From contig JBAZSC010000001.1 of NCBI GenBank assembly GCA_041662665.1, positions 65,511 to 129,510 on the forward strand: DNA of 64,000 bases, written 5' to 3'. Both the position numbers and the translations under genes were made by a program. Below the pieces are notes generated by a model. It worked only from the letters and a program-made list of their open reading frames with translations, did not search any database and was not told the DNA's origin. Every line of letters begins with the position of its first letter. The first letter of the stretch is position 1. Positions 12,523 to 61,906 of this stretch are shown one piece after another. The stretch is from Patescibacteria group bacterium. GTDB taxonomy: Bacteria; Patescibacteriota; JABMPQ01; JAQVVF01.

Positions 12523-12652
12523 AATATAATACAAATATACGAATTTATGCAAATTTACGAATATGCAAATCGTCGATAAACAAAATTCGCATATTCGTAA
12601 CATTTGCAAATAATTTTACTGTAACGAAAAATTATTCGTAAATTCGTATTAT
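12523..12652. repeat. palindromic MITE-like element (TACGAAT family), copy A; the arm next to lspA forms its promoter/5'UTR
   Basis: Two ~50-bp arms in inverted orientation (aatataatacaaatatacgaatttatgcaaatttacgaatatgcaaat / atttgcaaat...attcgtaaattcgtattat); related copies at 53194..53300, 57449..57502 and 58415..58530. Confidence 0.5.
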
Positions 12653-13005
12653 TTTTTTGCGCACTCTATGCAATAAGTCGCAGTTGGATTTGCTTCTAAT
12701 CTTGCTTTATCGATCATTTTATTGCAATTCTCGCATTTACCAAAAGTGCCTTTTTTAATCCTATCTAAAGCATTATCTACGTCTTTTAATTTTTGTTCTA
12801 AGTTTCCTTCAACAGACAAATTGCTATCATAAAGAGAGACTTCAGCAGCTTCAGCTGTATTATCAAAGATTGGATCGCCAAAATTTTTGAATTTTGGATC
12901 ATAATCATCTTTGGCTTTTGGATCTTTTGTCGCAACATCGCCCAAGCTCTTTTGAAGTTGTTGTTTTTCTTTTTCTAATTTGTCTTTTATATTGTTGTCT
13001 TGCAT
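12649..13005 (-). CDS. DksA/TraR-family C4 zinc-finger protein
   Basis: C-terminal CENCNKMIDKARLEANPTATYCIECAKK (CxxC-17-CxxC) preceded by a coiled-coil region. Confidence 0.75.
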   Translation of the reverse strand: MQDNNIKDKLEKEKQQLQKSLGDVATKDPKAKDDYDPKFKNFGDPIFDNTAEAAEVSLYDSNLSVEGNLEQKLKDVDNALDRIKKGTFGKCENCNKMIDKARLEANPTATYCIECAKK

Positions 13006-13280
13006 AAATTTTATTTTTAAATGTCTAGTAACTTAATTCTAGCATAAAATTAAATAAAAATCTAGGCGAAATTGCTCAATTGTTCATTTGTTAAATTGTT
13101 AAATCGTTGATTAAAGTTCCTATCCCACACCAAATGCAACTAGAAAAAATAGTTATATCACAGATTAAATGTATTTTAGAAAGAAAATGTTTTTCGTTAC
13201 TTTAACGGCATTTGGTGCGGGATTGTAAATTAAGCATGTTTTTTCTACGCCTGCGGGCTTGAAAAAAATGCTTTCTTTAC

Positions 13281-13310
13281 AAAAAAAACGGGCGCCAGAG
13301 GGCGCCCGTT
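13281..13310 (-). terminator. rho-independent terminator oriented for a minus-strand transcript (cgggcgcc-agag-ggcgcccg; T-run on the minus strand)
   Basis: Perfect 8-bp GC stem; the minus strand reads ...cgggcgccctctggcgcccgtttttttt; a second AT hairpin lies at 13231..13268. Confidence 0.65.
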
Positions 13311-13700
13311 AAAAATATTTAATGGCGCTCTGGCACCCGTGGGAGCTATATCTTACCGCCTTTCTCCTACTTGTGAATGATCACGTAGAATAAGGGCAGG
13401 ATTTAGCGATATAACCCATACAAGGTGCACAAGAAGCCTGATAGTTCTTCAATGTGTCTGTTCTCTCACCGTCCTTCTGGCTTTTGATCTATTTTGGATC
13501 TTGGCCTAAATTTTTGTTTTTGGTTTTTTGACTCCACTTGTTCTGGAGTATAAAGTGCGATTTTGCGGGTGTATCAGCACCCTTAACGGACAGAGAGAGC
13601 AGAATATCGAGTTACTAGTAACTAGTCACTAGTAACTGGCATTCTGCTCGCCCTGTACGGTCGCAGAAAAATAAATTTTTATAAGATATCTCGTTTTCTA
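13311..13700 (-). ncRNA. candidate structured non-coding RNA of unknown class in an ORF-free 1.2 kb region
   Basis: No ORF of 60 aa or more between 13006 and 14211; the region ends at a strong minus-oriented terminator; GC-richer than surrounding intergenic DNA, with multiple local stems (e.g. gagcagaat/attctgctc, gggtg..caccc). Confidence 0.2.
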
Positions 13701-14039
13701 CTTTTTTGTGGCCCTATGCAGATCAAATGGCTAGGCCATTGCAGATAAGCACGGGTAGTTGAATAGGGAAATGTCATAATTCATCTCACGAAATATATTT
13801 TTCCACTCAGGATAGCAAAAGAAAAATGTTCTTTTGGCGAGTCTTAAAATCATTTTAGCTTTTTTCTATGTTTATAAGTATTTCTACTCTGCAACGCGTC
13901 AAAGAGCAGACTCTACATCAGTAACTACAAAAAATCGCAGAAAGCCTAATTTGATTCTGACTAGCTCAAATTGTGAAAAAACGTTTTTGTTTTTGTTTCT
14001 ACATATATTATAGCATAAAATAACGTTTCATTCAAACCT

Positions 14040-14170
14040 TATTATAAATAAAAATGAAAGCTTAACAAAGCCAATCCACAAGTTATCAACAGCGAACACA
14101 AAAGTTATACACAGGCAATGTTTATAACTTTTATAGTTTTAAACAGCATATCTACAACTTATCCACAGGT
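14040..14170. promoter_or_regulatory. cluster of DnaA-box-like 9-mers (TTATCAACA, TTATACACA, TTATCCACA, plus AATCCACA) with a flanking AT-rich tract; candidate oriC or DnaA-regulated region
   Basis: Three TTATNCACA-class boxes in the same orientation within 85 bp, adjacent to ttattataaataaaaatg. Confidence 0.45.
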
Positions 14171-14211
14171 TAGGAACAATTTAAGTAATAAAAAAATCCA
14201 GATAACTGGAT

Positions 14212-14625
14212 TTACAAAGTACTGTACTTGAAATCTTTACGGACTAATGTCAGTTCAACAACAGTTTCTTCTTCATTGATGAATTCTTGGGAGTTTAACA
14301 AAGTCAGAAAACGAAGAAGAGATGCAAAATCACTGAATTCAAAGAATTGGTAGTCAAGGCTACGTTCATCGGAAAGATCAATCACAGCATGATGAGTATC
14401 TTTGTTGAAACGGATCCTGACGATTTTACAAAGCACATCGGCAAGTTGCTGTACTGCCAGCAATAGCCTCAAATCGCATACAGAAACAACAGCTCCAAGA
14501 AGAGTTTCTTCTCCATTTTCTTCCGTATTGATGATCAAAGTTGATCTTTCGCGACCAAGGTTCAAGAAAACTTGTTCTGGCGAACCATAAAAAGCCTTGC
14601 ATTCCAATGTTGCCACGCGTTTCAT
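14212..14625 (-). CDS. hypothetical protein
   Basis: AAGGAGGAG SD then ATG (MKRVATLE...); 138 aa. Confidence 0.5.
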   Translation of the reverse strand: MKRVATLECKAFYGSPEQVFLNLGRERSTLIINTEENGEETLLGAVVSVCDLRLLLAVQQLADVLCKIVRIRFNKDTHHAVIDLSDERSLDYQFFEFSDFASLLRFLTLLNSQEFINEEETVVELTLVRKDFKYSTL

Positions 14626-14691
14626 TTCTTTCTCCTCCTTTTTCTCGCCCACCCGAAGTATTTAATAACGTATACTAAAATCTAAAAAATG

Positions 14692-17391
14692 TCAATGTTT
14701 TTCCAAAAATTTCTCAACTTCTGTACCAATTTCCTTAATTTCATGGTGAGAAACACCTACTTTAGGCAAAGCTTGTAAAAACTTCATGCCATAGTCAGTA
14801 TTTTCAAGTCTCAAATCAAGCATCACAACTACGCCTTTGTCAGTTTTTGACCTTATTAATCTGCCAAATCCTTGTTTAAAAGTCAAAATAGCGCGTGGAA
14901 TAGAATATTGCATAAACTTATTTTGATATTGACTTGATCTTGCCTCAAAAATTGGCTCGCTTGGCACTTCAAATGGAATTTTAGTAATTACCAGGCATGA
15001 CAAATTTTCACCAGGAATATCCACTCCTTCCCAAAAAGAAGAAGTGCCTAGCAATATTGTATTTTTATCACTTTTAAAAGCATTTAATAATTTCATTTTT
15101 CCGCCAGTCACGCCTTGAGCCAAAACTTTTACTCCTTCTTGTCTCAATTCAAATGCCAATTTTTTATAAACACTTCTGATTGCCGAATAAGAAGTAAAAA
15201 GAACCAAAGTCTTTCCTTTTAATTTTTTTCCAATATCAATCAACACTTCGCAAGTTTTATTATTAAAATCATTATGATTTGGCAACGGAAAATCAGTTGG
15301 TAAAATAACAGTTGCTTGTTTTTCAAAATCATAATGAGAGGGGATTTGAATTTTATCAAAAGTTTCATCTAATCCAAGCTTTTTTGCAAAATAATCAAAA
15401 CCTTGATCAGTTGTTAGCGTTGCTGATGCCAAGATGACTGTTTCTTTCTTATCAAACAAATTATCTTTCAAATAACCATCAATATTTAAAGGTGCTGAAA
15501 ACAAATTAATCTTTTCTTCTCTGAAAGTCAGCCAATAGATGCCATTTTCTAATGGGTTAACAATAATTTCCTTCAACAAATCCTTAGTTTCGCGATTCTC
15601 CATAATTAAGCCATCAAGATCATAAATAATTTCTTGCCAATTTTTGTCATCTGTTGAATAATTTACCTTTAAATGATCCAAAAGTTCAGTTAGACTTTTT
15701 TCAAGCACTTCAAATTGCAAAACTAAATTGTTTATTGAGCCAGTTACTTTCCACCATTCACCATAATTTCGAACTCTGTCAGTCAGCAATAATTTTAGTC
15801 TGCCATTATAAAAATCTTGAAAAGCATTATTCTTAATAAAAATATTCAAAATGCCAAAAAATAGATCAGTTTGATTGGTTAATTTTTCCAAATTATGAAA
15901 AATCTTGTCTGTTACCTCAGATTTTTCTTTTTTACCAATTTTATTCAAAATTGATTTAATATTTTTCAAAAATTCATCAATTTTTTCATTTGACACAAAT
16001 TTCGTTAGTTGCGAGGTCATACTATCTTCCAGATGATGCGCTTCATCAATAATCAAATGTTTATAATCCAGATAATTCTCATCATCAGAACTTACAGCTA
16101 ATAAAGCATGATTAATAATCACAATATCAGCAGATTTTGCTTCTTCTTTTGCTTTATAATAAAAACATTTCTTTTGATTTGGGCATTTTCTTTTCAAACA
16201 AAAATTAGAACTGCAAACCAAGCTCTTTTTGACCCATTCTTCCTGAAAGCTTAATGACAATTCATTCAAAATGCCATCAGGAGTTTCTGGCATCCATAAT
16301 AATATTTTAACTAAAACAGTTAATTCGTCTTCGCTTAAGTTTTTTTTACTTTTTAATTCAAGGAATCGACGCAAGCACAAATAATTTTCTCTGCCAACTA
16401 ATTTTTTAGCTTTGAAATTAAAATTTACTGATTCTCGAACAATTGGGATATCCTTAAACAATAATTGATCTTGCAAATTCAGCGTGTATGTCGAAATTAC
16501 TACTTTTTCATTGTTTGCTTTGGCAAAATAAACAGCTGGTAATAAATAGGCGAGTGATTTGCCAACGCCAGGACCTGCTTCACAAACCAAATGTTTATCG
16601 CCCAAAAAAGTTTCACTCACTTTTTTCATCATTTCGATTTGATTCGGCCGAAATTCAAAATTCTTAAACACTTTGCTCAATTTTCCTTGATCAGCAAACA
16701 TTTTTTCAATCTGCCTCAAATCAAATTCTGGAATAACGTCGTTTGTCGTTTGCGTAGTTATTTTTAATTTTTGATTAATTATTTTAGATTTTAGATTTTT
16801 GACTTTTTTATGATTTATGAACAATTCACTTAATGACCATTCATGTCTAGTCAGCAATTTCCGAATATCTTCCAATATACGAATATCCAGTTCATCAATT
16901 TTAGCGATCAAAAACGAAAACAGTTCGCGTGTCGCCAAAACATCGCCCATCGCTCGATGGCTCTGTACATTTTTCATTTTTAAAAAAGAAACTAATGATT
17001 CCAAGCTATGCGAGCCTAACGATGGCAACAGAATAGTCGCTAATTTCCAAGTATCATAAGATTTATTTGGCAAATCAACACCTTTTGCTTTTAAATATCC
17101 CAAATCAAATGAAATATTATGGCCAATGATCGGCAAATCGCCAATAAATTTAATTAAATTATCTTGAATTTGATGAAGCAATGGCGCATCCTTTACCATT
17201 TCATCAGTTATTCCAGTTACAGCTTTAATTATTTTTGGAATTTCTGTTTTTGGATTAACAAAAGTCTGAAATTCATCAATTACTTTATCTCCTTCAAATT
17301 TAATCGCTGCAATTTCAATAATCTCGCCAAGACTTGGCAAAAGATCTGTCACTTCAATATCTAGACAGACGTATATTTTTTGATTTTTCAT
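14692..17391 (-). CDS. dinG: DinG-family ATP-dependent DNA helicase with N-terminal DnaQ-like 3'-5' exonuclease domain
   Basis: N-terminal YVCLDIEVTDL...HNISFDLGYL (DEDDh exonuclease); Walker A GPGVGKSLAYLLPA; DEAH box IIDEAHHLED; C-terminal helicase motifs. Confidence 0.8.
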   Translation of the reverse strand: MKNQKIYVCLDIEVTDLLPSLGEIIEIAAIKFEGDKVIDEFQTFVNPKTEIPKIIKAVTGITDEMVKDAPLLHQIQDNLIKFIGDLPIIGHNISFDLGYLKAKGVDLPNKSYDTWKLATILLPSLGSHSLESLVSFLKMKNVQSHRAMGDVLATRELFSFLIAKIDELDIRILEDIRKLLTRHEWSLSELFINHKKVKNLKSKIINQKLKITTQTTNDVIPEFDLRQIEKMFADQGKLSKVFKNFEFRPNQIEMMKKVSETFLGDKHLVCEAGPGVGKSLAYLLPAVYFAKANNEKVVISTYTLNLQDQLLFKDIPIVRESVNFNFKAKKLVGRENYLCLRRFLELKSKKNLSEDELTVLVKILLWMPETPDGILNELSLSFQEEWVKKSLVCSSNFCLKRKCPNQKKCFYYKAKEEAKSADIVIINHALLAVSSDDENYLDYKHLIIDEAHHLEDSMTSQLTKFVSNEKIDEFLKNIKSILNKIGKKEKSEVTDKIFHNLEKLTNQTDLFFGILNIFIKNNAFQDFYNGRLKLLLTDRVRNYGEWWKVTGSINNLVLQFEVLEKSLTELLDHLKVNYSTDDKNWQEIIYDLDGLIMENRETKDLLKEIIVNPLENGIYWLTFREEKINLFSAPLNIDGYLKDNLFDKKETVILASATLTTDQGFDYFAKKLGLDETFDKIQIPSHYDFEKQATVILPTDFPLPNHNDFNNKTCEVLIDIGKKLKGKTLVLFTSYSAIRSVYKKLAFELRQEGVKVLAQGVTGGKMKLLNAFKSDKNTILLGTSSFWEGVDIPGENLSCLVITKIPFEVPSEPIFEARSSQYQNKFMQYSIPRAILTFKQGFGRLIRSKTDKGVVVMLDLRLENTDYGMKFLQALPKVGVSHHEIKEIGTEVEKFLEKH

Positions 17392-17544
17392 TAGTAGAAT
17401 ATTAGAAATTGAATATTAGAAATTAAAACTAAAAATGTTAAACCTATTTTAACACGATAATATCTAATTTCCAATTTCCAATATTTTCATGAATAAAAAA
17501 ATAAACATATAATTTTGTAAATCGTTATTAGACATTTTTCACGA

Positions 17545-25075: not shown

Positions 25076-25462
25076 TCAATGAGCGTAACCTTCAAGAAGA
25101 TTTGTTTCAGTCATCACGCCATCAGTAATTACGACCTTTTCGATCGTATAACCATCATTCCAAACAAAAATTGCATCCAAGCTTCCCTTGTTTTTGCAGA
25201 ACATGTCAAGCAAAGGAGTATAATATCTTGTTGCGCCAATACCAATCACAAAAGTTTCCAACTGCAATGAGCCATCTTCCGAATTGCGGAAACTGATAGC
25301 TGACGTAAAATCAGTTTTCATGCGAAAACGTCCTCGAACTACACCAAGTCCGTATGGACCAAACACGCGAGCTTGTCGTTCGAGTTCTGGGAACATTTGG
25401 ATTTTCAAAGCAAAAGATTTGATGTGTACTACCGAAAGGACGTCACCATGCATAGGTTTCAT
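25076..25462 (-). CDS. hypothetical protein
   Basis: AAGGAGG SD then ATG (MKPMHGD...). Confidence 0.45.
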   Translation of the reverse strand: MKPMHGDVLSVVHIKSFALKIQMFPELERQARVFGPYGLGVVRGRFRMKTDFTSAISFRNSEDGSLQLETFVIGIGATRYYTPLLDMFCKNKGSLDAIFVWNDGYTIEKVVITDGVMTETNLLEGYAH

Positions 25463-25839
25463 TCTGCCTCCTTGCCTCTCGTTGTTGAGAGGAACAATAA
25501 AATATTACATAATTAACATAAAATGTCAATCCAAATAGTCTTGCCAAAATTAAATTCATTTGGTATAATTAAAATATAAAATATAGTAAAAACTATATTA
25601 GTTTAGTTTACAATAATTAATACGCTATTTTGGCCAAAGCTTTTGCTAGTGCTAAAATAGTCGCGAATTTCGTTTAATTTAAACTTCGTTCAGCGTAATC
25701 CATCAGGATAATCCGCATGTTATCCGCACGAATCCGTGCAAACATGGATTAAATAATTAGACGTGGTTTACGCAAAACATTTTTAAAGATAGCGAAAGGT
25801 CATAAAATTATGTTGAGCAAGAAAAAAAAGACTTCTTTA

Positions 25840-37730: not shown

Positions 37731-38327
37731 TTTCGTTGCTTGTTAATTGTTAAATGTTAACTGTTAATTGTCCGCAACTTGACAACTTAATATTGCATTT
37801 ATAAACTGCTAGTCAATTTTATAAGAGTATATGGCGGATGCCTTGGCTAATTAAACCTAAGAAGGACGTTGCAGCCTGCGATAAGCCTCGGGGAGGTGGC
37901 AAGCAACCTTTGATCCGGGGACGTCCGAATGAGGAAACTCATCCTGCATTTATGTAGGATATCTCTTACTTCGGTAAGAGAGGGGTACCCAGTGAACTGA
38001 AACATCTTAGTAACTGGAGGAATATAAAACAATAGTGATTCCCCAAGTAGCGGCGAGCGAACGGGGAACAGTCTAAACCGTATCTTAATTATTAGTAACT
38101 TAACTTTATTGTTGGTTATTAATAATTAATTTATCGGGGTTTCGGAAACAACATTTACGTAATTCTAAGCGGTTAGTTGAAAGCTTCTGGAAAGAACTAC
38201 CATAGTGGGTAATAGTCCCGTAAACGAAAACTGCTTCAGATACGGTTGTTTTCCAAAGTAGCACGAGCTAAGTGAAATCTCGTGTGAATTCGGGAGAACT
38301 ACTCTTCCAAGACTAAATATTTAATTA

Positions 38328-38369
<42 letters not shown>

Positions 38370-38943
38370 TCCCGATGAGGGAGATGAAATAGAACCTGAA
38401 ACCATATACTTACAAGGAGTAGGAGCCCCGCTTCGGCGGGGTGACTGCGTGCTTTTTGCAGAACGAGCCAACGAGTTAATGTATGTTGCAAGGCTAAGTT
38501 ATTATTTAACGAAGCCGTAGGGAAACCAAGTTTTAACGAGCGTTCAGTAACATATATTAGACCCGAAACCAGTTGAGCTACCCATGGGCAGGATGAATTT
38601 GAACGAAAGTTCAAAGGAGGTCCGAACACACAAGCCGTGCAACACTTGGTGATGACCTGTGGGTAGAGGCGAAAAACCTAACGAAGCTGGAAATAGCTGG
38701 TTTTCCTCGAAATAGCTTTAGGGCTAGCCTTATTATTACTTGTTTGGAGGTAGAGCACTGGATGGAATGAGATGGTTTATACCTACTCGTTCCAATCAAA
38801 CTCCGAATGCCAGACAATCACATAATAGGAGTCAGACTGTGGGGGCTAAGCTTCATAGTCAAAAGGGGAACAGCCCAGATTACCATCTAAGGTCCCTAAA
38901 TATATGCTAAGTGGTAAAGGATGTGCGATGACTTAAACAGTTA

Positions 38944-38975
<32 letters not shown>

Positions 38976-53193: not shown

Positions 53194-53300
53194 AAAATAT
53201 AATACGAATCTACAAATGTATGCAAATCAACAAATATACGAATTCGCGAATATTTGCATATTCGTAGATTAGCATAAATTCGTAGATTCGTATTACATTA
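53194..53300. repeat. palindromic MITE-like element (TACGAAT family), copy B; forms the promoter/5'UTR of 53304
   Basis: aatataatacgaatctacaaatgtatgcaaat ... tttgcatattcgtagattagcataaattcgtagattcgtattacatt; centre acgaattcgcgaat. Confidence 0.55.
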
Positions 53301-53303
53301 TAC

Positions 53304-54935
53304 ATGTTTAAAAAGCAATCCATCATCTTAAGTTTAGCAATAATAATCTATATAACTTTTTTCACAAGTCTATGCTTTTTAAAATACAATAATTTTTTGT
53401 ATCAAGGATTAGATTTGGCAATATTCAATCAAGTTTTTCATAATTTAGTCAACAACAATTCTTTTTATTCGGGCATTCAAAATCAAAGTTATTTGGGAGA
53501 TCATTTTTCGCCAATTATATTTCTTCTTTTGCCATTCTATTATTTTTTTCAAAATCCCAAAACATTATTATTCTTGCAAACAGTAATTCTAGGCTTATCA
53601 GCAATTCCAGTTTTTTTAATCGCCAAAGAAAAATTAAGAAATAAAAATTTAGCCTTAATTATTAGTCTTATCTTTCTTGCTAATCCAGCCTTGCATAGCG
53701 TTAATCTTTACGAATTTAGCCTTTTATCATTTGCAGTTCCATTATTACTAACAACATTTTATTTTTTTCAAAAAAAACAATTTTTGTGTTTTTGTGTTTT
53801 AGTGTTTCTGTGTTTTCTAATTAGAGAGGACATCGCTTTAATTATCTTCATGTTTGGAATCTACGCAATGCTAAAAAGATATCAACGAAAATGGATTTTA
53901 TTGCCAATTCTTTCATCCATTGTTTACTTCATTTTAAGCCTAAAAATCGTCAGCCATTTTAGCACCAATAATAATTACAAATTTTTATTTCATTACTCAT
54001 GGCTTGGCAATAATTTAACAGATTTAATTATTAATTTTTTCCTAAAATTTCCAGAAGTTATTTTACATTTTTTAAATATTTACAATTTAATCTTTATTTT
54101 TTATTTATTAATTCCAGTTTTTTTCTTGCCAATTTTTGGCCGAAAAACATTAATATTTTTTATCCCAATTGTATTGCAATTTGGTCTCGGAAATTCCGGC
54201 TTTCGCGGCATATTTTTTACGCATTATTTAGCTCTATTTATTCCATTCATTTTCGTTTCCGCAATCTATGGTTTTTCGCTAATGCTATCTCGAATGCGTC
54301 TAATGCCATCTCAAATAAATTCAACCAAGTTATTGCTTGGCAAAAAAGAATATATTTTAATTATTTTTTTACTATTTTTTATAACCATTGCTTCAAATAT
54401 TGGCTTTAGTCCATCATATAATTTAACAAAAAATTTATTAAAAATTAACAAGCAAGAAAGTCAAAATAAGCAAGATTTAGTCAAAGAAATTCCAGTCTGT
54501 CTTTGTTCTAAAAATTATATTTTAGCTACAAATGATTTCTTGCCAGCCTTATCAAACAATGAAAATTTATTTGCATCATTTTATTTAGTCAAAGGCAAAA
54601 AACAATATTCAAATCAAAAATATGATATTCCTAAACTAAATTACGCAATTATAAATTATCAGCAATTTTTTAGTAATTGCAAAAATCAAGAAAATTTAAT
54701 GCAAAATAAGAATATCTGCAATCAGGCAAAAAAAAGATTAAAAAAAGTAATTTCAAAAAACCATTTAAATCCAGAAAGAATAGTTGATAATAATGTTTTA
54801 TATAGTACAAATTATCAGCCTGATATTTTCAAACAATCTTTGCAAAAATTAGAACAAGATACTATCATTAAATCAAACAAGTTTAATTATAATGTTTTTC
54901 TAGATGAATCTTCACTGGAGAAAATTTCACTATGA
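53304..54935 (+). CDS. large polytopic membrane protein (DUF2079/GT-C-like putative glycosyltransferase)
   Basis: 543 aa with about 12 TM segments; N-terminal loop YQGLDLAIFNQVFHN. Confidence 0.45.
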   Translation: MFKKQSIILSLAIIIYITFFTSLCFLKYNNFLYQGLDLAIFNQVFHNLVNNNSFYSGIQNQSYLGDHFSPIIFLLLPFYYFFQNPKTLLFLQTVILGLSAIPVFLIAKEKLRNKNLALIISLIFLANPALHSVNLYEFSLLSFAVPLLLTTFYFFQKKQFLCFCVLVFLCFLIREDIALIIFMFGIYAMLKRYQRKWILLPILSSIVYFILSLKIVSHFSTNNNYKFLFHYSWLGNNLTDLIINFFLKFPEVILHFLNIYNLIFIFYLLIPVFFLPIFGRKTLIFFIPIVLQFGLGNSGFRGIFFTHYLALFIPFIFVSAIYGFSLMLSRMRLMPSQINSTKLLLGKKEYILIIFLLFFITIASNIGFSPSYNLTKNLLKINKQESQNKQDLVKEIPVCLCSKNYILATNDFLPALSNNENLFASFYLVKGKKQYSNQKYDIPKLNYAIINYQQFFSNCKNQENLMQNKNICNQAKKRLKKVISKNHLNPERIVDNNVLYSTNYQPDIFKQSLQKLEQDTIIKSNKFNYNVFLDESSLEKISL

Positions 54936-55017
54936 ATAATGAATCAAGAATTAAGAATCATGAACTAAATTCCGATTCATAATTCTTGGTTCATAATTCA
55001 TAATTCTTCTTTAAATT

Positions 55018-56595
55018 ATGTTTAGAAAAATTAGTAAAAAGGAATGGCTATTTGTTAGTATAATTGCTGTTATTACAATTATTTTAGTCATCTCTCCATA
55101 TCTCTATGGCTATTTAACTACGCCAAAAAATATGATTTTTACTGGCGTGACTTTCGATCAAGATTATTCCTATTTTTCGATGATGGAGCAAGCAAAAGAA
55201 GGCAAAATATTATTTAAAAATCTTTACACATCAGAAGATCATCAAGCAATTTTTTTTCGGCCATTATTTTTAGGTATGGGTCTATTTGCAAAATATGCGC
55301 ATCTTTCAAATTTCTTTGTTTTTCATTTATTCAAAATTTTGTTTATTTTATTTTTTATTTTTCTGGCTTACAAATTTATTTCCATCTTTTTTAATGAAAA
55401 AAGATATCGGATAATTAGTTTAATAATTCTTCTTTTTTCTTCAGGCTTCGGTTTCTTGGGCGACCGTTTATTCGGCTATTTATCAACTGATCTTTGGATT
55501 CCAGAATCGCAAACTTTTGCCTCATTTTTCACTCAGCCTCATTTTATTTTATCGCAAATTTTGATCTTACTCTGTTTTATTTTAATATTAAAAAAAGAGC
55601 TTTATTTTGCTCTTTTAGCAGGTTTATCAAATTTTATTTTAGGCCTTGAACATCCATTTGATTTGCCAGTCACACTTTTAGTTCCCTTAATTTATTTTAT
55701 AATTTTATATTTTTGGAAAAAAGAAAACAGAATTTTAAATTATTTAATTTATGGCTCAATTTCAATTCTGCCAATTATTTATCAATTTTGGACAATGAAA
55801 TTTGAGCCAATCGCCAAAGCTTGGAATGACCAAAATATTTTAAAATCACCAGAAATTTTAGCTTGGATCATTGGCTATGGAACAATTATAATTTTTGCAA
55901 TTATTGGTTTTACAAAATTTTTCAAAAACAAAAATACTAATTTATTATTTTTAAATATTTGGGCAATAGTTAATTTGTTATTATTATATTTACCTGTAAA
56001 TTTTCAAAGGAGAATGTCCGAAGGCTTGCATATTCCATTAACAATTTTGGCAACTTTTGGCATCATTATGGTCTATAATTTTTTTGACAAAAGAAGCATC
56101 AAGCATAAAATTCACACTCATATTCCAAAGGTTGCTTTTTTATGGATTATAGCTTTATCTTTGCCATTTACAAATATCAACCGCATTGCCAATTATTTTA
56201 ATAATTATGCCAAAGCAAAATCTCTTCCATATTATTTCAGCCAAGATTTTTATCAAGCTGTAAAATATTTTAATGATAATAAAATTTCGGATCAAACAAT
56301 TTTAGCCTCGCAAAAAAATGGTCCATTTATTTCAGGTTTGACTACAAATAGAGTTTATCTTGGCTTTGTCTTCCAGACTAAAGATTATTTTATTAAAAAA
56401 GATACAGTAAATTGGTTTTTCAAAAATAATGAAAAAATTAGCCAAAAACAAGAATTTTTACGAAAAAGAAATGTTCAATATATTTTGTATGGTCCAGAAG
56501 AAAAAAAACTTGGAACAATTAATTTAAACAAAAAAGACTTTCTTGAGAAAGTCTATGAAAATAATAGTTATCAAATTTATAAAACAAAATCCTAA
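55018..56595 (+). CDS. large polytopic membrane protein (putative GT-C-type glycosyltransferase)
   Basis: 525 aa with about 12 TM segments and a soluble C-terminal domain; ends ...YKTKS* with the stop inside the repeat at 56586. Confidence 0.45.
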   Translation: MFRKISKKEWLFVSIIAVITIILVISPYLYGYLTTPKNMIFTGVTFDQDYSYFSMMEQAKEGKILFKNLYTSEDHQAIFFRPLFLGMGLFAKYAHLSNFFVFHLFKILFILFFIFLAYKFISIFFNEKRYRIISLIILLFSSGFGFLGDRLFGYLSTDLWIPESQTFASFFTQPHFILSQILILLCFILILKKELYFALLAGLSNFILGLEHPFDLPVTLLVPLIYFIILYFWKKENRILNYLIYGSISILPIIYQFWTMKFEPIAKAWNDQNILKSPEILAWIIGYGTIIIFAIIGFTKFFKNKNTNLLFLNIWAIVNLLLLYLPVNFQRRMSEGLHIPLTILATFGIIMVYNFFDKRSIKHKIHTHIPKVAFLWIIALSLPFTNINRIANYFNNYAKAKSLPYYFSQDFYQAVKYFNDNKISDQTILASQKNGPFISGLTTNRVYLGFVFQTKDYFIKKDTVNWFFKNNEKISQKQEFLRKRNVQYILYGPEEKKLGTINLNKKDFLEKVYENNSYQIYKTKS

Positions 56596-56727
56596 ATCCT
56601 AAGCACAAAATCCTAAACAAATTCAAATGATCAAAATACTAATTTTCAAATTTGACGAAGAGTTTTGAAATTTAGTAATTTGAATTTTGAATTTATTTAG
56701 GATTTAGAATTTAGTGCTTAGAATTTT
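56586..56727. repeat. palindromic MITE-like element (TCCTAAA/TTTAGGA family), copy 2, between convergent membrane-protein genes
   Basis: aaaatcctaaatcctaagcacaaaatcctaaacaaattcaaatg ... tttaggatttagaatttagtgcttagaatttttc. Confidence 0.55.
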
Positions 56728-61071: not shown

Positions 61072-61713
61072 TTAAAATAATTTTTCTATATCTTTAACTT
61101 TTAATTTTTCAAAACTTTTAATAATTAAATCCGCTTTTTTTACATCTTTAATATTGGATGATGCAAAGCCAACAACTTTCATTTTTGCTTTTTTTCCTGC
61201 CTCAACTCCTAATACTGCATCTTCAAAAACAACACAATCTTTAGGATCAACTTTTATTCTTTTGGCAGCAGTCAAAAATATTTCTGGATTTGGTTTTGAT
61301 TTTTTAAAATCATAACCAGTTATAACTTTATCAAAACAATCATAAATTTTTATTTTCTTTAAAATAAATTCAGTATTTTTTGATGATGATGCTGCTGCAA
61401 TTTTAATTTTTTTTCTTTTTAATTTCGAAACAAATTCTCTAAATCCAGAAAAAGTTTTTGGTGGGTGAGCATTAACTGCTTCAATAAAAAAAGCTTGTTT
61501 TCTTTCCATCATTTCATCTAATCTTTTTTTCGAAACTTTTCCAAGTATATTTGTGATTCCATCAATTCTCGGCACACCATTTACTTTTTTATCATAATCT
61601 CTTCTTGTCAAATTAACTCCTTCTTGTTTAAAAAATTTTTTCCAAGCAGAAAAATGATGCGGAACTGTATCAGTAATTACGCCATCCATGTCAAAAATAA
61701 TCGCTTTTAGCAT
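61072..61713 (-). CDS. HAD-superfamily hydrolase, subfamily IA (beta-phosphoglucomutase-like)
   Basis: Motif I IIFDMDGVITDT, motif II at S-S-S (AAASSSK), motif IV VVFEDAVLGVEAG. Confidence 0.8.
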   Translation of the reverse strand: MLKAIIFDMDGVITDTVPHHFSAWKKFFKQEGVNLTRRDYDKKVNGVPRIDGITNILGKVSKKRLDEMMERKQAFFIEAVNAHPPKTFSGFREFVSKLKRKKIKIAAASSSKNTEFILKKIKIYDCFDKVITGYDFKKSKPNPEIFLTAAKRIKVDPKDCVVFEDAVLGVEAGKKAKMKVVGFASSNIKDVKKADLIIKSFEKLKVKDIEKLF

Positions 61714-61906
61714 AAATATTAATTTAATAATTGATGAGTGAATTTTGTGTATAACGTCTGCATTTTCTGCGTTCGATTCTGCGTATTTCTGCGTTAAACA
61801 TCATGTAAAAAGTTTGGCTAAATTATTTATTTATTTATTAATTAATATAAACTAACAAAAATATTTGTTCTTGTCAAAGAAAAAACAGCCCATAGAGCTG
61901 TTAAAA

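Follow-up and report, generated by a model that had tools for sequence, protein, structure and literature searches.

The three DnaA-box-like 9-mers found near 14.1 kb of the window (the whole stretch of 64,000 nucleotides analysed here) form a real cluster, more than chance would produce, and lie just upstream of the predicted promoter of an unannotated structured RNA. With a probability of about 0.55, we consider that they constitute a secondary, non-origin DnaA-binding cluster in the upstream control region of this RNA gene, where DnaA would control the RNA promoter. We infer from sequence patterns that DnaA is the binding protein and that its binding alters transcription. The initial annotation had proposed either oriC or a DnaA-regulated promoter. 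The oriC part is not supported by the present analysis, while the promoter part is retained in a modified form, in which the predicted promoter faces the ncRNA-like stretch.

Box A (14159..14167, plus strand) is the perfect DnaA box TTATCCACA, which reads cCTGTGGATAAg on the minus strand. Box B (14105..14113, plus) is TTATACACA, an exact match to TTATNCACA (minus-strand reading cCTGTGTATAACTTTTGTGTTC), and box C (14083..14091, plus) is TTATCAACA, with one mismatch (minus-strand reading CTGTTGATAACT). All three boxes are in the same orientation, with start-to-start distances of 22 and 54 bp. The initial annotation had listed these 9-mers, TTATCAACA at 14083, TTATACACA at 14105 and the perfect TTATCCACA, in one orientation, and all of them are present on the plus strand; the start of the perfect box, however, is 14159 rather than 14158. 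Only box A is perfect, and TTATCAACA deviates at position 6, which is kept even by relaxed E. coli consensus sequences; this counts against the DnaA reading.

In the whole window, 12 sites with at most one mismatch to TTATCCACA were found, versus 19.4 expected from shuffled sequences, and three of the 12 are in the cluster. When the window was shuffled 300 times with dinucleotide frequencies kept, a single shuffle had at least three sites within 100 bp, and none had them on the same strand. The possibility raised earlier, that similar clusters occur at chance frequency in this genome, is thus answered in favor of the cluster. A cluster of the B. subtilis type is defined by at least four boxes, with at most one mismatch to TTATNCACA, and a score A above 0.3 (PMC2533591). 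The score of Ishikawa et al. for the present cluster is A = 0.46 (d 17.3, affinity sum 8), and four boxes are counted, one of which is weak and unconserved. This is the sole place in the window where A exceeds 0.3; non-overlapping regions reach at most 0.02. In a shuffle control (n = 100), no sequence reached 0.46 and two reached 0.3. The fourth box in the score is the opposite-strand site TTATAAACA (14119..14127, minus), with one mismatch to TTATNCACA. Since this site is poorly conserved, its function is doubtful.

The boxes were compared among five variants of the locus, namely the window and four further loci of the same clade, L001, L002, L005 and L014, with DinG identities of 71-84% (all five are hereafter the window clade). 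The mean pairwise identity of the three boxes is 0.96-1.00, versus 0.46-0.81 for the spacers between and around them. Box B is invariant in all five variants. Box A is the same in four of the five and is TTATCAACA in L014 (pairwise identity 0.96), and box C is TTATTAACA in L014 (0.96). The spacing is 22-23 and 54-55 bp across the variants. The most divergent variant, L014, therefore carries TTATCAACA, TTATACACA and TTATTAACA, and from these forms the invariant minus-strand pattern is cTGTnnATAAcT; the invariant positions are TGTnnATAAc, with two central bases free. The score A is 0.44-0.47 in L001, L002 and L014, and 0.14 in L005. The fourth 9-mer of the initial annotation, AATCCACA at 14073, fared less well. 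The letters are present at 14073-14080, but as the full site CAATCCACA (14072..14080, plus) it has two mismatches and a pairwise identity of 0.59, and it is not kept in L001, L002, L005 or L014. It is probably non-functional.

The conservation of the boxes bears on the trivial explanation that they are chance similarities in AT-rich intergenic DNA, kept only through close kinship. The genome is indeed rich in AT, and only one of the five variants is not a close relative. The shuffle statistics, however, argue against it, as do the much stronger conservation of the boxes than of the adjacent spacers and the presence of box-like sites at the same place in three lineages (L036, L038 and L040) whose DinG proteins have identities of 38-46%. 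We give this explanation almost no weight.

Two further box-like sites were observed in the window. TTTTTCACA (13972-13980, minus), which agrees with the E. coli consensus TTWTNCACA, falls within the predicted RNA at about +22 to +30 and is oriented opposite to the three upstream boxes; it is not kept in L001 or L014. A lone GTTATACACA, which is the box B 9-mer plus its 5' flanking G, is located at 61746-61755 (minus); the HAD-hydrolase gene at 61072-61713 (minus) starts about 35 nt downstream of it.

The promoter of the RNA is predicted at 14007..14035 on the minus strand. It consists of the -35 hexamer TTGAAT (14035-14030), a 17-nt spacer ending in TGC, and the -10 hexamer TATAAT (14012-14007), which gives 10 of 12 hexamer matches plus a TG extension, as in an extended -10 promoter of the sigma-70 type. 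In the window clade, the -10 hexamer is invariant (pairwise identity 1.00) and the pairwise identity of the -35 hexamer is 0.87. Another candidate for the RNA promoter, TTGTTA-16-TATAAT (14068-14041), was rejected as unconserved. The boxes are 47, 69 and 123 nt upstream of the -35 hexamer and do not overlap the promoter hexamers; DnaA boxes are accordingly found just upstream of a promoter, itself a predicted one, from which they are separated by a poorly conserved AT-rich spacer of about 47 nt. The promoter points away from the neighboring hypothetical gene and dinG, into the ORF-free stretch. On the minus strand, the order is the terminator of the hypothetical gene, the three boxes, the promoter, the RNA of about 720 nt, and a strong terminator.

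The upstream edge of the box region is formed by the intrinsic terminator of the hypothetical gene (14186..14213, minus; AAATCCAGTTATCTGGATTT plus a T-run, with part of the stem at 14213-14194), the stem of which is kept by compensatory changes in L002 and L005. The gene itself (14212..14652, minus; 146 aa) lies outside the module and found no match in a Pfam search. In other lineages it is swapped for unrelated small genes. The space between dinG and the boxes, which holds the 146-aa gene in the window, contains genes of 93 and 116 aa in L001, 116 and 135 aa in L002, 101 (HTH), 168 and 164 aa in L014, and 157 aa in L038, whereas L040 has no gene there. The space thus behaves like a slot for variable genes. 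Farther upstream, dinG (14692..17391, minus; exonuclease and helicase, Pfam RNase_T and Helicase_C_2) is the conserved neighbor, in synteny with the module in L001, L002, L014, L036, L038 and L040.

The RNA extends over 13281..14000 on the minus strand, its start being placed from the -10 hexamer and its end from the terminator. The intrinsic terminator (13279..13310, minus; AACGGGCGCCCTCTGGCGCCCGTT at 13310-13287 plus T8) is very strong and invariant in the relatives, and forms the outer segment of a longer hairpin at the 3' end. No ORF longer than 40 aa was found on the strand of the RNA within 13281..14000, and the small ORFs are unconserved. A protein-coding reading of the region was rejected, since it offers small ORFs only, and a 23-aa Cys-rich ORF among them (13381-13452) is broken in L014. 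Downstream of the RNA are a gene of the dksA/traR zinc-finger type (12649..13005, minus; Pfam zf-dskA_traR) and then lspA. The dksA gene has its own TGCTAGAAT promoter, and the promoter-like sequence is conserved in L002. Given separate promoters for the RNA and for dksA, a terminator at the end of the RNA, and a downstream neighbor that varies among lineages, we regard the RNA as an independent gene and not a leader.

In the window clade, conservation is higher for the RNA sequence than for the flanking proteins. The last 330 nt at the 3' end of the RNA are near-invariant among genomes whose proteins differ by 16-29%, and hypervariability in both length and sequence is seen at 13600-13650, a hairpin tip with actagt repeats. 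The consensus fold has 184 pairs, of which 23 change on both sides, versus 9.1±2.2 in column shuffles and 4-8 in register-shifted controls. The MFE z-score is -7.1 for the minus strand versus -4.0 for the plus strand. The core domain (13421..13597, minus) is made up of a closing helix (CUCUCUGUCC/GGACGGUGAG) and three hairpins, one of which is GGGUGCUGAUACACCC, together with the single-stranded, A-rich segment CAAAAAACCAAAAACAAAAA. On this covariation support, we regard 13281..14000 as a conserved structured RNA gene.

For the RNA, a search of Rfam 15 gave no match at the gathering threshold, and a search at E<=10 with positions 12900-14300 of the window and 8000-8620 of L036 gave chance-level matches only; ARAGORN found no tmRNA. 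Assignment to a known RNA class was rejected on these searches, and a seeming likeness to RNase P motifs failed. In a metagenome scan with the 18-mer CCAGAAGGACGGTGAGAG from the RNA, the 18/18 matches were at chance level. The RNA resembles OLE, ROOL, GOLLD and raiA in its length (400-770 nt for the present RNA), its multiple helices, its conservation of both sequence and structure, and its own (predicted) promoter and terminator. Even at E<=10, however, it matches neither these nor any further family of Rfam 15, and all its occurrences so far are downstream of dinG, in genomes of the Saccharibacteria type. It may therefore represent a new class of large RNAs in bacteria.

Distant homologues were not found with an nhmmer profile of the RNA. 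They were spotted by eye and then confirmed by a covariance model, R1, built from the 177-nt core (13421-13597) of the window clade only. R1 matched L038 (E 7e-8), L036 (E 5e-6) and L040 (E 1e-3). The homologous RNAs are about 400 nt long and are located at about 8174-8576 in L036, 9163-9556 in L038 and 10943-11347 in L040, the last locus being part of the 1.14-Mb chromosome-level record OZ246404.1, in which the module is at about 138 kb. They are always downstream of dinG, in the same orientation, and end in a similar long hairpin terminator. When the core was aligned with these distant loci, 23 of 37 pairs changed on both sides and 97.9% of cells were paired, versus 39-51% in slid controls, although these counts lean toward structure because the alignment was fitted to the model. 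Downstream, the RNA is followed by a gene for a 539-aa protein in L036, and by an ogt-like gene on the opposite strand in both L038 and L040.

The distant homologues have a common type of predicted promoter, TTGnnn, 17 nt ending in TGY, and TAnAAT: TTGCAT-17-TGCTACAAT in L036, TTGATT-17-TGTTACAAT in L038 and TTGATA-17-TGCTATAAT in L040. Box-like sites are found upstream of each. L036 has a single box, the box B 9-mer with identical flanks (ttGTGTATAACTT), 104 nt upstream of the -35 hexamer. L038 and L040 have TGTGGAAAA, followed directly by GTG(T/A)ATAA, and an opposite-strand TTACCCACA 22 bp from the first; these sites are 83-116 nt upstream of the -35 hexamer. L038 has an extra ATATACACA adjoining the -35 hexamer. 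Counted by mismatches, L038 has two sites within one mismatch of TTATCCACA and two with one mismatch to TTATNCACA, and L040 has two and one, respectively. The score A is at most 0.16 in all three (0.16 in L038 and about 0 in L040), below the B. subtilis threshold. Since L036 has one box and L005, L038 and L040 are below the threshold, strong multi-box binding is not universal in this RNA family. Whereas the boxes, the promoter and the RNA stay together, the lineages have unrelated genes between dinG and the boxes, and L040 has none. Box-like sites thus seem to be a persistent property of the upstream region of the RNA, the number, order and orientation of which turn over. Such turnover fits independent monomer sites such as DnaA boxes, and not a fixed operator. 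Elsewhere in L038, a DnaA-box pair, ATATCCACA (minus) and a perfect TTATCCACA (plus), was observed at 13406-13445, 31 bp apart, between comM and a LysM/CHAP gene.

It is worth considering whether the 9-mers only resemble DnaA boxes and are instead bound by a different transcription factor, or act as a structural DNA element upstream of a strong promoter for a stable RNA. The invariant TGTnnATAAc with its free central bases could be read in this way, and the inverted repeat CTGTGG-N19-CCCACAG of L038 and L040 would suit a dimeric regulator. The inverted repeat is absent in the window clade, however, where the three sites are direct, and the variable number and orientation of the sites suit DnaA better than a fixed dimer operator. 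In addition, one of the sites is the perfect universal DnaA box. The flanks also speak for DnaA: we take the cTGTnnATAAcT pattern to be that of R1 and R4 of E. coli oriC with their flanks (cTGTGGATAAc), and box B to be identical to R2 (TTATACACA), so that the cluster would presumably match R1, R2 and R4. We therefore regard another factor or a structural element as rather unlikely, and DnaA as the better candidate for the binding protein.

We further analyzed whether the cluster could be a replication origin. According to this explanation, the site would be an oriC unlinked to dnaA, in which the boxes load DnaA, the AT tract unwinds, and transcription of the RNA aids opening. Clustered, conserved DnaA boxes beside AT-rich DNA speak for such a site, DnaA boxes with R1/R2/R4-like flanks and nearby AT-rich DNA are also found at bacterial origins, and in some bacteria oriC is located away from dnaA. 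The cluster, however, differs from a bacterial oriC in several respects. It has only three conserved boxes, all in one orientation, and the orthologous place has one box in L036 and two or three degenerate ones in L038 and L040. No DnaA or DnaN domain was found in the window among ORFs of at least 300 aa, and tblastn with E. coli DnaA and DnaN gave no match in the window or in the other loci examined; dnaA and dnaN are hence absent within 14 kb on one side and 50 kb on the other, and both searches agree with the initial annotation, which had placed the two genes outside the window.

The AT tract ttattataaataaaaatg (14040-14057; its AT-only part is set at 14039..14055, assigned to no strand), which the initial annotation had considered compatible with an unwinding element, forms the spacer between box C and the -35 hexamer. 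It is ordinary: the window contains 114 A/T-only runs of at least 15 nt, and 23% of its 37-bp windows are as AT-rich or more. The stretch with the tract is unconserved (pairwise identity 0.66), and no run of at least three TA[G/A] repeats, that is, no DnaA-trio array, is present in 13950-14250. The unwinding element was therefore not upheld.

Gene orientation and GC skew also argue against an origin at this site. Minus-strand genes run from 25462 to 10006 (about 15 kb) through the cluster, with a single exception, one small plus-strand ORF, and at the orthologous sites the genes are all plus in L036 and all plus except ogt in L038 and L040; divergent genes, as at an oriC, are not seen. The initial annotation had recommended an analysis of cumulative GC skew, and the minimum, calculated over the 64-kb window only, lies at about 25.5 kb and not at 14.1 kb. 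With genes pointing the same way on both flanks, the effect of the coding strand cancels out, so that an origin would be expected to raise the downstream skew consistently. The coding-strand GC skews of co-oriented genes upstream and downstream in four lineages were.116/.116,.131/.111,.155/.188 and.210/.125, resulting in differences (downstream minus upstream) of 0.000, -0.020, +0.033 and -0.085, and the GC3 skew was similar, with no change of sign or size. There is hence no consistent positive shift and no skew switch.

For a closed Saccharibacteria genome, the origin defined by skew has been reported between dnaN and dnaA (PMC6031116); this comparison, of the kind recommended with the initial annotation, also speaks against oriC. 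The literature on DnaA boxes, oriC and ncRNAs of Saccharibacteria yielded nothing specific beyond this report. An origin at 14.1 kb was rejected on the skew, the gene orientation, and the lack of an unwinding element, of trios and of dnaA/dnaN, and we consider the dnaA-unlinked oriC described above very unlikely. An origin at the skew minimum of about 25.5 kb was also rejected; this position is a divergent operon junction with one box of one mismatch and no cluster. The junction (25462-25810) has a hypothetical gene on its left and rpsO-pnp on its right. In both L038 and L040, rpsO-pnp and dinG are collinear; the window clade therefore carries an inversion breakpoint at the junction. An origin of the mobile-element or plasmid type was rejected as well: no similarity was found in plasmid or phage collections, and the locus is syntenic across genomes.

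Clusters outside oriC are known from model bacteria. In B. subtilis, the non-origin clusters are yqeG-sda, ywlC, yydA and gcp-ydiF (Ishikawa et al. 2007, PMC2533591). These clusters control the promoters next to them, with sda activated and ywlC and yydA repressed, and may also serve as a buffer for DnaA (PMC2533591). The yqeG-sda cluster, through which DnaA activates sda, has A 0.40, d 17.3 and an affinity sum of 7 (PMC2533591), nearly identical to the present cluster (0.40 vs 0.46, d 17.3 in both, sum 7 vs 8). The present cluster shares with these clusters intergenic boxes of the TTATNCACA type that lie off oriC, beside a promoter (here a predicted one), and are conserved among relatives. 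It differs in that the neighbor is a large structured non-coding RNA and not a protein gene, in that three boxes are conserved and the fourth scored box is weak and poorly conserved, and in that the host belongs to Saccharibacteria (Patescibacteria) and the cluster is a predicted one. In E. coli, datA, DARS1 and DARS2 are small clusters of 3-5 boxes outside oriC, which act on DnaA and do not initiate replication. Moreover, datA and DARS2 need IHF (and Fis) sites, and the three-box core of DARS has opposed boxes. In contrast, the present cluster showed no such architecture: its three boxes all point the same way, at spacings of 22 and 54 bp.

These comparisons raise the possibility that the cluster is a titration or inactivation site for DnaA, like the B. 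subtilis clusters or E. coli datA, and that the proximity of the RNA promoter is incidental. Such clusters are known outside oriC (PMC2533591; PMC12371093), the score of the present one passes the B. subtilis threshold for stable binding, and the boxes do not overlap the promoter hexamers. The boxes, however, travel with the RNA promoter across lineages despite the turnover of their sequence, and the one to three weak boxes of L036 and L040 would offer little capacity as a sink. We consider a titration site unlikely. By analogy, the best reading is that the cluster may regulate, or at least accompany, the RNA promoter, in a manner similar to the sda cluster of B. subtilis.

If DnaA controls the RNA promoter as proposed, DnaA-ATP would bind the perfect box and spread cooperatively to the two weaker boxes. 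The DnaA on the boxes would then modulate RNA polymerase at the adjacent promoter, and the RNA level would follow DnaA activity, i.e. the replication status. Since the boxes are upstream of the promoter and not over it, activation seems somewhat more likely than occlusion. The base contacts of domain IV of DnaA are made by R399, P423, D433, H434, T435 and H439 in E. coli numbering (PMC2533591). At regulatory sites, E. coli DnaA prefers pairs of boxes 2-3 bp apart (PMC11317965); the boxes of the present cluster are not in such pairs, which counts against regulation by DnaA. Most likely, the boxes would couple either the RNA or the amount of free DnaA to the cycle of replication. A bolder proposal is that the DnaA cluster and the Saccharibacteria-wide RNA form one replication-control module, in which the RNA would exert feedback on initiation, for instance through DnaA or the DNA of the origin. 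In its most extreme form, the locus would be a dnaA-unlinked origin that needs transcription of the RNA to open. This proposal is speculative, and we assign it a low probability.

The window has about 32% GC, and its DinG is 84% and 82% identical to MAG proteins of uncultured Candidatus Saccharibacteria and the Patescibacteria group. As is typical of the group, the window encodes a T4SS pilin and DUF3352 proteins, and its 23S rRNA is interrupted by LAGLIDADG-bearing insertions. The 23S rRNA gene (37811-42183) spans 4373 nt versus 2925 nt in the model. Since its internal ORFs (39860-40321 and 41209-41685) are LAGLIDADG endonucleases, it would carry two insertions of the intron type. No 16S gene adjoins it; upstream are tRNA-Arg, tRNA-Lys and a CYTH-domain gene. 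At 53300-56600, two plus-strand genes (a DUF2079 membrane protein and a 525-aa protein) have about 25% GC and, unlike the other plus-strand genes, a negative GC skew; they look foreign in composition. In the close relative L006, a reverse transcriptase gene (RVT_1) beside a bAvd-type gene was observed at 15559-17515, past comM by about 5 kb; the two genes together resemble a diversity-generating retroelement.

Since non-origin DnaA-box clusters are already known in model bacteria, the element is not new in kind. What sets this cluster apart is that it is a conserved upstream feature of a long structured RNA without an Rfam family. For annotation, the present case is a warning that box clusters alone are insufficient for calling origins in such genomes. 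The main interest lies in the unannotated, widely conserved RNA beside the cluster, which keeps a fixed place downstream of dinG across divergent Saccharibacteria, epibionts with reduced genomes. If DnaA does control the RNA, the cluster would provide a concrete link between the replication status and a non-coding RNA in Patescibacteria.
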